NCBI GenBank assembly: GCA_965219445.1
Contig: CBDCNQ010000003.1
Coordinates: 96,001 to 160,000, forward strand
Direction: 5' to 3'
DNA: 64,000 bases
Source: Longimicrobiales bacterium
Lineage (GTDB): Bacteria; Gemmatimonadota; Gemmatimonadetes; Longimicrobiales; Gaopeijiaceae
The notes beneath the pieces were generated by a model that was not told where the DNA came from, did no database searches, and worked only from the letters and a program-made list of their open reading frames with translations. Positions 51,635 to 56,179 of this stretch are shown in pieces; position 1 is the stretch's first letter, and each line of letters opens with the position of its first letter. The position numbers and the translations under genes were made by a program.

Positions 51635-52014
<380 letters not shown>

Positions 52015-52020
52015 GCCGTT

Positions 52021-52094
<74 letters not shown>

Positions 52095-52571: not shown

Positions 52572-52940
52572 TCACGCGGCTAGTGCTTCCTCATCGAGGT
52601 TTCCGGAAGCCAAGGCCAGCAATCTATCAAACACTTCGTCTTCGGGGGCGATGAAGTCGAGTCCGTTGAGGCCAAGAAAGATGACGGCGGCCAAAAACGA
52701 GATCCGCTTGTTTCCGTCTCGGAAGGGGTGACTGGAGCAAATTCCGAAAGCGTAGTCGGCAGCGAGCCGGGCCAGGTCCGACTCCGGCTCATAGGTCCAT
52801 CTCTGCCTTGCCCGGGCTAGGGCTGACTCCAGGGCATTCTCGTCGCGGATGCCCATCAGACCGCCGTGTTCGCGAATCTGGTCGAGATGGACGGCCTCAA
52901 TGACAAGCCGGGGAACCCACCGGGGCTCCGGCTGAGTCAC
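52572..52940 (-). CDS. doc: Death-on-curing (Fic/Doc) toxin; C-terminus probably clipped by a 1-bp deletion
   Basis: HGG..GIRD...LESAL, HPFRDGNKR; ends LAA*, and one extra G would give LAAWIRSRIQ. Confidence 0.88.
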   Translation of the reverse strand: MTQPEPRWVPRLVIEAVHLDQIREHGGLMGIRDENALESALARARQRWTYEPESDLARLAADYAFGICSSHPFRDGNKRISFLAAVIFLGLNGLDFIAPEDEVFDRLLALASGNLDEEALAA

Positions 52941-53164
52941 TTCGCGAGTTCTCTAAGAGCCCCCTGGTACCGTTTCTGAGCCTCGGCCGCGATTGCGAGC
53001 CCTTCCTCTACCGCTGGATTGTAGGGGCTGAGCAGAATCCCGTCTGCCGTCTCAACGGCAAGCACTTCGTCTCCCGCCTCAAGGTGGAGGCGCTCCGCCA
53101 TCTCCTTGGGCAGTGTGGCCCCGACAGATCCCCCCATTCTGCGTAATCTCACATTTCGAACCAT
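52937..53164 (-). CDS. AbrB/MazE-family antitoxin
   Basis: LRRMGGSVGATLPKE...L.L..GD; C-terminal RY..ALRELAK; 4-nt overlap with doc. Confidence 0.88.
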   Translation of the reverse strand: MVRNVRLRRMGGSVGATLPKEMAERLHLEAGDEVLAVETADGILLSPYNPAVEEGLAIAAEAQKRYQGALRELAK

Positions 53165-53178
53165 GGTATTCCTCCGAA

Positions 53179-53196
53179 GTAGCACCTTAATGCTAC
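53179..53196. promoter_or_regulatory. Palindromic putative TA operator
   Basis: GTAGCA-N6-TGCTAC just upstream of the antitoxin RBS. Confidence 0.5.
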
Positions 53197-53232
53197 CGGG
53201 TTTGAGGTTGGGTCAATAGGTGTGTAAATGTT

Positions 53233-54477: not shown

Positions 54478-54744
54478 GAGGCATCGTTCCTTTCCCCCGG
54501 GCGCTCACCCGGGATTCGCTGGTTAACTTCTTACTACCTAGCGGAAAGGTACGTCGCCTCTTTTTTTACACACCCTTCTATGGGGCTGGCGGTCAAGACG
54601 CACCTTCCCCACGCGCCGTCGGCTCATTTTTTGACCGTCGGCGTCCGCATGGTTTGGATTGCCCGGTCGACGACTCAGGGTGGGGAGGGGTGCGCTCGCA
54701 GGGTCCGCATCGCAGTCCGGAAGACGTTCACAGCCGTCGCGTTC

Positions 54745-54960
54745 TCCGCTCTGGAGCGGGAACCATCCTTCTATCTGGGACTCTGTGGCCCATCGCTTCG
54801 TTCGGCTCTCCAGGGGTGCATAGCCTTTGAGTGGGGGCTTGGGCTCTCTGCCCCGGCCCACGGTGTGTATGGATGCTGTCCCCTGTAACCGGTTCGCTTC
54901 CGTTTCGTCGGACCCCATGTTGTGACCGCTTTCGACCCCACGCTCGCCGATCCCGGCCCG
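54745..54960 (-). ncRNA. Putative bridge/seek RNA; boundaries approximate
   Basis: Target guides TACACACC (54862-69) and TCAAAGG (54824-30) flank one stem. Donor guides GATG (54791-94) and ATAGAAGG (54767-74) flank a second stem. Confidence 0.75.
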
Positions 54961-54962
54961 GT

Positions 54963-56018
54963 TTACTCCGTCGCTTCCAGTCTCTTGGGGTCGTACGCTT
55001 CGCCCGTGCGCCACACCGCTAGCACGATCGAGGCGAGCTGACGCGCGATCGTCAGCTTCGCCAGATTCGGCTTCGTGCCCCCCTCCAGGAGTCGCTCGTA
55101 GTGGCGGTACAAGGGTTCGTTTTCGGCCCGACCGATCACCGTCGTCGCCGCGCCCTTGAACACACGCTTCAGCGTGTGGTTGAAGTTCCGATTCAGCCCC
55201 CGCGTCTGCTGTACCGGTTCCCTTACCCACCGCCCACCCGGACCCCGCACCCAGTCCGACGAGCTCCGCATCACGACGCCCAGTCCGCAGTACGCCCAGA
55301 ACCTGCTCCGGCTCTGGAACCGGTACGGCGTCACCACCACCGGCAGGAGCTCCGCCGTCCGGATCGGACCCAGACCCGGGCACGTCTTCAGCACATGCCA
55401 CTCTCGATGCTTGCGTGCTTCCGCCAGCAAGGCCTTCTCGGCCTTCGCCCTCAATGCCACGAGTGCGTCGTGCTCCTCGTACAGCAACCCGGCCGTCGTC
55501 CTGCTCGCTTCCGGCAGCTTGGCCAACCACTCCTCCCGGTCGCGCTTCAAGTAGACCGAGCGCCCCGCGCCGTAGGCCACTCCTCTCGAGCGCAGCACGC
55601 TCTTGAGCCGGTTCTTCACCCGCACCGTGTCGCCGACCAGGAAGTCGTAGCTCTTCGCCCGTTCCCCCAGCCGCCTGAACTGGCCCCGGTTCTTGTAGAC
55701 CCTCGTCTCCAGTGATCCGATCCGCAGCTTCTCCGCCAGGGCAAACGCGTCCAGCTTGTCGGTCTTCGGGCCCCGGCTCTTGCCGACCCCCGCCACCGTT
55801 AGCTCCTCCACGTGCGGCTCCAGCACCTCGTACAGCCACCCCGACAGCGTCCCTTCTTCCAGGCACAAGTGCCGGTTCCTCGGAATCCCTCGCAGCACCT
55901 CGATCAGCGCCCGCGCGTTCGTCTCCACCACCTGCGAGCCCAAGCGCTTGCCGCTGGGGCCTACAATCCCCAGCGTGCAGCTCGACGCGTGTGCGTCGAG
56001 TCCGATATATCTCTCCAT
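54963..56018 (-). CDS. IS110 DEDD recombinase
   Basis: YIGLDAH, LEEG, KTDKLDA, PGLGP, YCGL....RSSS; AGGAG RBS. Confidence 0.95.
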   Translation of the reverse strand: MERYIGLDAHASSCTLGIVGPSGKRLGSQVVETNARALIEVLRGIPRNRHLCLEEGTLSGWLYEVLEPHVEELTVAGVGKSRGPKTDKLDAFALAEKLRIGSLETRVYKNRGQFRRLGERAKSYDFLVGDTVRVKNRLKSVLRSRGVAYGAGRSVYLKRDREEWLAKLPEASRTTAGLLYEEHDALVALRAKAEKALLAEARKHREWHVLKTCPGLGPIRTAELLPVVVTPYRFQSRSRFWAYCGLGVVMRSSSDWVRGPGGRWVREPVQQTRGLNRNFNHTLKRVFKGAATTVIGRAENEPLYRHYERLLEGGTKPNLAKLTIARQLASIVLAVWRTGEAYDPKRLEATE

Positions 56019-56179
56019 CGGCGTTCTCCTCTTGGATAGGTGGGTTGCTTCCTTGCGCGAACAATGATGAACGCGCACCCGTTCCCGGAGGAGAACGCCT
56101 CTTCGTCTTCGGGCTGCTTCGCTGCTGATCGGTACCGGTAGCGGTCGCCATGCCCCTATGATGCCTTTGATCCTAGCTC

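Follow-up and report, generated by a model that had tools for sequence, protein, structure and literature searches.

The principle of RNA-guided recombination was established in 2024, and the described systems closest to the one reported here are IS621, the IS1111 group and ISEc21. In PMC11208160, PMC11208158 and PMC13626964, IS621 combines a two-loop RNA and a recombinase with DEDD and serine residues with a CT core, in which the T is near-invariant (PMC11208158), and a handshake base beside that core. The IS1111 group (ISEc11, ISKpn4, ISPa11), as portrayed in PMC11187229 and PMC11208160, has a long 3′ non-coding region, a top-strand guide placed 5′ of the bottom-strand guide, 7 bp on the left and 3 bp on the right beyond perfect or near-perfect subterminal repeats of 11–13 bp, a predicted junction promoter and natural reprogramming among relatives; some IS110-group members also have a 3′ non-coding region, according to PMC11187229. 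ISEc21, in that paper a further IS110 element with an RNA guide, goes to the transposase gene of a different insertion-sequence family, IS3; its RNA is a 5′ one and the guide order is reversed. Terminal repeats of other mobile elements are targeted by IS4321/IS5075 (Tn21 terminal repeats) and by IS1383 (IS1384 inverted repeats), as titles cited in PMC11208160 indicate, and a copy-out model is outlined in 10.1101/2025.10.25.684509. Our literature searches, made outside ISfinder and subscription journals, brought up no description of IS256 repeats as a site for IS110-family elements.

The window analysed here, a 64,000-nt stretch of a Longimicrobiales genome, carries on its minus strand an IS110-family element (Table 1) whose recombinase, judged by comparison with its relatives, very likely follows an RNA guide to the left end of an IS256-family element. 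An earlier note, made from the window alone, had proposed a readable RNA-guided recombinase of the IS110 family programmed against an IS256 end, and the homologous loci strongly support that proposal. We hold with high confidence that the element is fixed at one position of the IS256 left inverted repeat (IRL), likely via bridge-RNA-guided recombination at a 2-nt AG core. Repeat-targeting by IS110-family elements is already known from IS4321/IS5075 and IS1383, and IS256 ends extend it; in contrast to those cases, the target here is the IS256 left repeat, at one end only and between predicted transposase half-sites. The element shares with the IS1111 group the long 3′ non-coding region, the guide order, the 7 bp and 3 bp beyond the subterminal repeats, the predicted junction promoter and the natural reprogramming, but its subterminal repeats are gapped and imperfect. 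With IS621 it shares a predicted two-loop RNA, the DEDD and serine residues, the CT core and a likely handshake base beside it, whereas its RNA lies 3′ of the gene, a single donor guide covaries and the 5′ target guide is found in three registers. ISEc21 resembles it in being directed at another insertion-sequence family, but differs in hitting a gene, in the 5′ place of its RNA and in the order of its guides. The value of the locus lies in a well-resolved natural system, since sequence alone gives the core, the two target guides, a donor guide, an off-target insertion, a filled/empty allele pair and 43 differently programmed 5′ guides, and in a recombinase clade less than 28% identical to any match in a plasmid collection. 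Two questions become testable, natural guide rewriting and the escape of targeted elements by core change, and we rate the record of natural reprogramming as being of above-average value.

Table 1. Features of the IS110-family element and of the interrupted IS256-family element, in window coordinates
Feature	Position	Strand	Basis
IS110-family element including both AG cores	54575..56166	-	junctions of 24 copies, allele pair, core length
Recombinase gene, 351 aa	54963..56018	-	Pfam domains, conservation in 109 homolog segments
Left subterminal inverted repeat, imperfect	56147..56159	-	begins 7 bp in, core counted
Right subterminal inverted repeat, imperfect	54580..54590	-	3 bp from core
-35-like TTGACC	54591..54596	-	sequence
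Target-binding loop, predicted	54812..54884	-	fold, 60-sequence consensus with compensatory pairs
5′ target guide ATACACACCG	54861..54870	-	predicted pairing: top strand, inner IRL half
3′ target guide ACTCAAAGG	54824..54832	-	predicted pairing: bottom strand, core plus outer IRL half
Donor-binding loop with 3′ hairpin, predicted	54746..54810	-	alignment
3′ donor guide ATAGAAG	54774-54768	-	equals right-end 7-mer at 70/75 loci
5′ strand of donor loop, GAAGC-GATG	54799-54791	-	without covariation
IS256-family transposase gene, 414 aa	53233..54477	-	PF00872; NF033543 at 295 bits, exceeding the cut-off
IS256 right inverted repeat, unoccupied	53204..53230	-	sequence, census of repeats
IS256 IRL, outer 15 bp	56165..56179	-	common to 23 filled copies
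IS256 IRL, inner part with TGTAAA motif	54557..54574	-	motif as described in PMC7780238

The mobile unit measures 1,590 bp (1,588 bp core to core), with a left end of 146 bp 5′ of the recombinase gene and a right end of 386 bp, including the long non-coding region, 3′ of it. The recombinase carries the two domains by which the IS110 family is broadly recognized, PF01548 (RuvC-like DEDD, 39.3 bits) and PF02371 (Tnp, 32.5 bits), both above the Pfam cut-off. Alignment with IS621 assigns putative DEDD/Ser roles to D8, E54/E55, D87, D90 and S253; among 109 homolog segments, whose coverage varies by position, D8 is conserved in 104, E54 and E55 in 108, D87 and D90 in 109 and S253 in 107. The serine sits within GLGxVMRSSS (GLG[IV]VMRSS[SA] in homologs), which replaces GL-P----SG; the IS1111 group has the GL-P----S/TG motif and the present recombinase does not. 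Against the NF033542 equivalog the protein scores 112.8 bits over residues 4–340, below the cut-off of 140, and by this measure its clade is divergent. Its nearest relatives, at 95–100% protein identity, come from Longimicrobiales assemblies, the top match in the plasmid collection is 27.6% identical, and the match to the IS621 protein is marginal (E 0.019). The IS1111 label given in the earlier note holds for the layout of the element and fails for the protein sequence, as the recombinase gave no alignment with IS5075, the single IS1111-type reference compared (E 0.093). No group label emerged from the plasmid search (ISGdi15-like match) or from the look-up in published supplements, and an Rfam search of the element matched no family. 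We place the element in the IS110 family broadly and not in IS1111; it may be one of the IS110-group members with a 3′ non-coding region.

The interrupted element has a Mutator-type DDE transposase, TGTAAA inverted repeats and, at part of its copies, 8–9 bp duplications, as expected of the IS256 family. Removal of the IS110-family element restores a left repeat that can be aligned with the right repeat, so the insertion lies inside IRL, at bp 14-15 counted from its tip. The left junction, GGATCA-AAGG-CATCAT (56167-56164), and the right junction, CCATAG-AAGG-GTGTGTAA (54577-54574), read as first proposed. The empty target deduced from them was recovered both as an uninterrupted exact repeat in eight other genomes (G043, G175, G242, G274, G294, G330, G241, G341) and as an empty allele of a filled site. 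In this allele pair (L164 empty, L016 filled) the left flank and repeat are identical over 245/245 bp and break exactly after AG, with 96.5% identity over 1,515 bp on the IS256 side. Insertion is precise, occurs in a single orientation and adds one core copy with no true duplication. The inner IRL also runs directly into the outer IRL at 54577 in contigs of 7/7 non-RNA read runs.

The census of this genome (G000) returned 24 left junctions with 96.7–100% identity, together with one 83% relic, and 23 of the 24 follow the outer IRL, the single exception being C2:336726. The 24 full right junctions lead into the inner IRL in 21 cases, into the inner IRL and a group II intron in one, to the off-target site in one and into an internal tandem duplication in one. 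Flanks of other copies, to which the earlier note had looked for a decision, bear out its reading: 23/24 share one site, and where relatives have different guides, their sites differ to match. IS256 left ends number 28 (23 filled, 5 empty), while all 29 right repeats are intact and none is occupied. As had been noted, the right repeat is unoccupied and reads ATAG over positions 13-16. Its bp 14-15 are thus TA, and the AG one base inward matches only 1/6 guide positions, which likely explains why this repeat is spared. The off-target site at C2:336726 matches the 3′ target guide at 9/9 positions, from which we conclude that this guide reaches into what had been taken for a stem.

No perfect 14-nt empty target remains in this genome. 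The five empty IRLs read TCAGAAGG, TCGAAGG, TCAAGG, TCAGAGG and GTGAGT over the guide-read stretch, and all five differ within it, in or beside the last bases of the outer 15 bp. The variants TCAGAAGG, TCGAAGG and TCAAGG could be scars of imprecise excision or recombination, since the left flank joined to the last right-end bases yields each of them. Escape of IS256 through an end taken from the IS110 right end was considered and set aside, as no copy in G000 has such a structure. Only 9/24 IS256 copies with both ends retain their own 8–9 bp duplication, and the flanks of the window copy pair with those at C3:165138 and C4:1221680; both observations point to frequent rearrangement between copies, or to misassembly. 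In G000 the target duplications have changed places in two cycles of three copies each (C3:152179, C3:162158 and C4:1221680; C4:199262, C4:326794 and C5:654041), each with one scarred empty IRL, possibly reflecting recombination between junctions of different copies. The group II intron-like element, called by eye from its ends and RT-like motifs, spans 1,900 bp at G000 C4:1169767-1171666 and has 13 copies; the one in a filled IRL lies three bases from the IS110 junction, and with 1/13 copies in IRL the intron was dismissed as a second IRL specialist. The isolated left end of 83% identity, at G000 C2:661602, adjoins a GGATAG-type site and is perhaps a relic of a relative with the ancestral guides.

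Junctions of relatives define the core as 2 nt, AG (CT on the opposite strand), where the four bases common to both junctions of the window copy had suggested AAGG/CCTT. The first core base is A at 63/64 left and 79/79 right junctions and the second is mostly G, while the base preceding AG at the 64 left junctions varies (T 36, A 19, C 7, G 2), as does the base following AG at 79 right junctions (G 55, C 10, A 9, T 5), which excludes the four-base core. At left junctions a G follows the core in 64/64 cases, a count to be read with the left-end search pattern, which requires or favours G. Being constant on the left and variable on the right, this post-core G would be a donor base outside the core. 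The target loop has GC after its AG, and this GC could pair with the post-core G after strand exchange, by analogy with the IS621 handshake guides; the last G of the 3′ target guide is likely the handshake position. One right junction, that of L002, has three extra bases, through an imprecise insertion or a slip.

Guides were compared with their DNA sites in a set of 157 fetched loci, 16 more and the window, of which 163 had a usable recombinase match and 115 a parsable target loop; the latter included 64 loci with a left junction and 80 with a right one. For the target tests we retained guide spacings of 24–55 nt and dropped L052 for a wrong end call. The 3′ target guide matches its own left flank at 4.45/6 non-core positions on average, against 2.21 +/- 0.19 when shuffled (30 distinct guides), and the 5′ target guide matches its own right flank at 5.66/7 against 3.09 +/- 0.17 (43 guides), scored in real and shuffled data alike as the best of three registers. 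Neither value is reached in 20000 shuffles, which ignore relatedness. Of 37 matches at ≥6/7, the three registers of the 5′ guide account for 19, 9 and 9. The stretches proposed as guides, TACACACC (54869-54862), TCAAAGG (54830-54824) and ATAGAAGG (54774-54767), are present as described, and the proposed check across homologs came out in their favour, both target guides and the 3′ donor guide changing with their DNA sites. The strand assignment needs correcting: TACACACC is the bottom-strand sequence and hence pairs with the top strand. For the window itself, 16/3000 dinucleotide shuffles of the 384-nt non-coding region give a top-strand match of at least 7 nt together with a bottom-strand match of at least 8 nt, and two unoccupied genomic sites score 11/13, the same as IRL, so match counts alone are insufficient.

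These data make it extremely improbable that protein or DNA structure picks the site and that the non-coding matches are coincidental: at about 80% identity the sites of the recombinases differ in step with their guides, and at 69% identity there is a recombinase that shares both guides and site with the present element. Such a mechanism would suit the unremarkable fold of the single sequence, and 10.64898/2026.03.19.712850 reports that target structure raises the specificity of ISPpu10.

The donor loop differs in layout from the earlier proposal and reads GA-TGGG...CCCA-G-ATAGAAGG, with GATG overlapping the supposed stem by two bases and an extra G. Two donor guides had been proposed. The 3′ one stands, for the right-end 7-mer, located independently of the RNA, equals it at 70/75 loci across 11 guide sequences. 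GATG was rejected: it pairs with the left end in 27/46 distinct elements, shows no covariation and varies opposite a left end that reads CATC in 46/46. A lineage outside these 46 elements (L179 and L183) has AATG opposite CATT, yet AATG occurs with CATC in 13/46. The position-equivalent GAAGC matches at 4/5 bases in 45/46 elements, one having GAGGC, with both sides near-invariant.

That the 11 donor-guide 7-mers follow the right end, with 70/75 exact, inside a conserved second loop weighs against the seekRNA model, in which the RNA would guide the target only and the protein would recognize donor ends mainly via the subterminal repeats, the ATAGAAG match being secondary. We regard this model as rather unlikely, while acknowledging that just one donor strand covaries, that the left and right arms of the gapped subterminal repeats covary as well (mean score 7.77/12 against 6.76 shuffled, 26 pairs), and that short seekRNAs are described as enough for ISEc11 and ISEc21 in PMC11187229.

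Support for the RNA structure comes from the alignment and not from a single-sequence fold, because the window sequence alone shows no signal: the fold of 54745-54960, suggested earlier as a check, is no more stable than its shuffles (z +0.65). In an alignment of 60 of 76 distinct scaffolds, the consensus forms two internal-loop domains with the guides unpaired. Scaffold cells are paired in 94.1% of cases against 84.3% in shuffled and at most 51.9% in slid controls, 17/32 pairs are compensatory, and the covariation of 0.335 compares with 0.164 after shuffling and no more than 0.098 after sliding.

Several copies show rearrangements around this region. The last ~500 bp, comprising the whole bridge-RNA region, is tandemly duplicated at G000 C5:1612733-1613241 and in L237, the right end being joined to gene-internal sites (window 55081, 55055), twice over in L237. 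These duplications resemble ISPpu9 modular circles and could transfer guides among elements. A gene-less donor-loop fragment lies at G000 C5:1023334-1023423 and recurs as loose ends in runs X1, X5, X10, X12 and X14.

Taking the preferred bridge-RNA reading, the following sequence of events may be proposed. Circle formation would join TTGACC to CATCAT (56163-56158) at a predicted spacing of 17 bp, making a promoter and creating the donor site; in the linear element no promoter-like site was found. RNA from the 3′ non-coding region would then fold into a target loop and a donor loop. As the covariation suggests, the two target guides would divide IRL between them, the 5′ one reading the top strand in the inner half and the 3′ one the bottom strand across the outer half and core, while the final 7 nt of the right end would be read by the 3′ donor guide. 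By analogy with IS621, the DEDD/Ser recombinase would exchange strands at the core, with the post-core G as handshake base. Beyond the subterminal repeats the ends consist of 7 bp on the left (AG+GCATC) and 3 bp on the right (AGA), the core being counted on the left. Promoter spacing across homologs was discounted as evidence, as the search pattern itself fixed the 17 bp. Contig sets of eight read runs, of a kind that drops rare forms, contained no circle joint. RNA run X20 gave a single 286-nt contig within the gene at depth 2.4 and none on the non-coding region; this contig does not count as a sign of expression.

In most relatives the guides are directed at a GGATAG / G(A/C)A(A/T)TYCAA-type site, the commonest target of the clade, which often precedes a G+C-rich run (L010, L013, L014, L079, L085, L090, L118 and others). 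Recombinases of about 80% identity occupy different sites, each tracking its own guides. Guides of the IS256 type are confined to the window clade and, at 69% identity, L092/L094. L094 is likewise inserted in IRL, ahead of an IS256 gene, and L092, which may be chimeric, combines IS256-type guides with an ancestral-type left flank and has no right junction. In a quick tree the two sets are each nested among relatives with ancestral guides, and a constraint uniting both IS256-guide sets is rejected (p-AU 4.5e-8, 16 proteins), the constrained group being defined by guide sequence but named after tree inspection. On this sequence evidence, two distinct recombinase lineages have guides that read IS256. 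They differ in the hairpin that separates the guides, which makes a swap of the whole loop unlikely and leaves convergence or short conversion as sources of the shared guides.

Further guide changes accompany IS256 ends in other genomes. L235, a G242 variant whose 3′ guide is altered, abuts right-repeat sequence, which that guide matches at 7/9 positions against 3/9 for IRL; the other junction of L235 is not IS256, and the seven perfect IRLs of that genome are empty. In G241 a second guide variant occurs alongside an IRL variant and pairing is not restored; with 7/9 matches before and after, Watson-Crick compensation is ruled out and the changes are correlated only. G175 carries a relative with different guides and has kept perfect empty IRLs.

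Occupancy differs among genomes. Expressed as IS110 left ends / perfect empty IRLs of all empty IRLs, it is 5 / 0 of 10 in G199, 2 / 0 of 2 in G082, 6 / 1 of 3 in G330, 5 / 1 of 1 in G241, 7 / 5 of 5 in G274, 1 / 46 of 48 in G294 and 1 / 7 of 8 in G242 (variant guide); in G175, with its other-guide relative, 3 of 40 empty IRLs are perfect. Perfect ends are depleted in only part of these genomes, and G294 (1 copy, 46 perfect empty) and G274 (7 and 5) rule out that saturation is universal. The left flank of the only G294 copy is identical to that of G000 C2:603187 over 200/200 positions, which suggests recent arrival on a transferred segment. The other 37/40 empty IRLs of G175 are an AA core variant, and 8 in G199 have AT; escape of IS256 by such changes is a hypothesis, because the AA variant has amplified where no IS256-guided element was found.

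Eleven of the 16 full composites have identical IS256 bodies, yet no two of these eleven share an IS110 sequence (mean 12 substitutions), a pattern that fits separate insertions better than copying of the composite. An old single insertion amplified as a composite, with the IS256 transposase moving IS110 and IS256 as one unit bounded by the outer 15 bp of IRL and by the right repeat, is improbable in our view, though gene conversion could mimic the diversity. Seven filled copies have 8–9 bp duplications around the whole composite, as such amplification would produce, but these duplications are expected under either reading. One filled site is common to G000 and G294, and PMC7780238 reports that junctions of the IS256-family element ISCth4 with the outer 14 bp of the left repeat are active in vitro. 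Conversely, the element is also found in IS256 subtypes 81–90% identical to that of the window, one filled site has an empty allele, and amplification would leave the guide covariation unexplained.

The effect on IS256 can be judged from ISCth4, whose transposase, in the same report, binds bp 1-12 and bp 14-25 separately. By analogy, splitting IRL at bp 14-15, an ISCth4-type half-site boundary, would separate two transposase-binding half-sites and probably hamper IS256. A complete block is not assured, as ISCth4 junctions with half of the left repeat (outer 14 bp) still integrate in vitro according to PMC7780238. IS256 copies may provide neutral landing pads. A larger scenario, which we advance as a tentative possibility, is that a separate bridge-recombinase clade was reprogrammed twice independently onto IRL, with both guides exchanged while each lineage kept its own scaffold, and that it spreads until intact ends are exhausted, leaving core-variant or scarred survivors. 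If true, it would constitute a readable RNA-guided arms race of parasite on parasite and a natural record of guide rewriting, perhaps copied from the target.

Two neighbouring features of the window were also recorded. A gene pair for a MazE-type antitoxin and a Fic/Doc protein lies directly after the IS256-family element (52572-53185), and an RNase P RNA gene is followed by a tRNA gene at 51635-52094.
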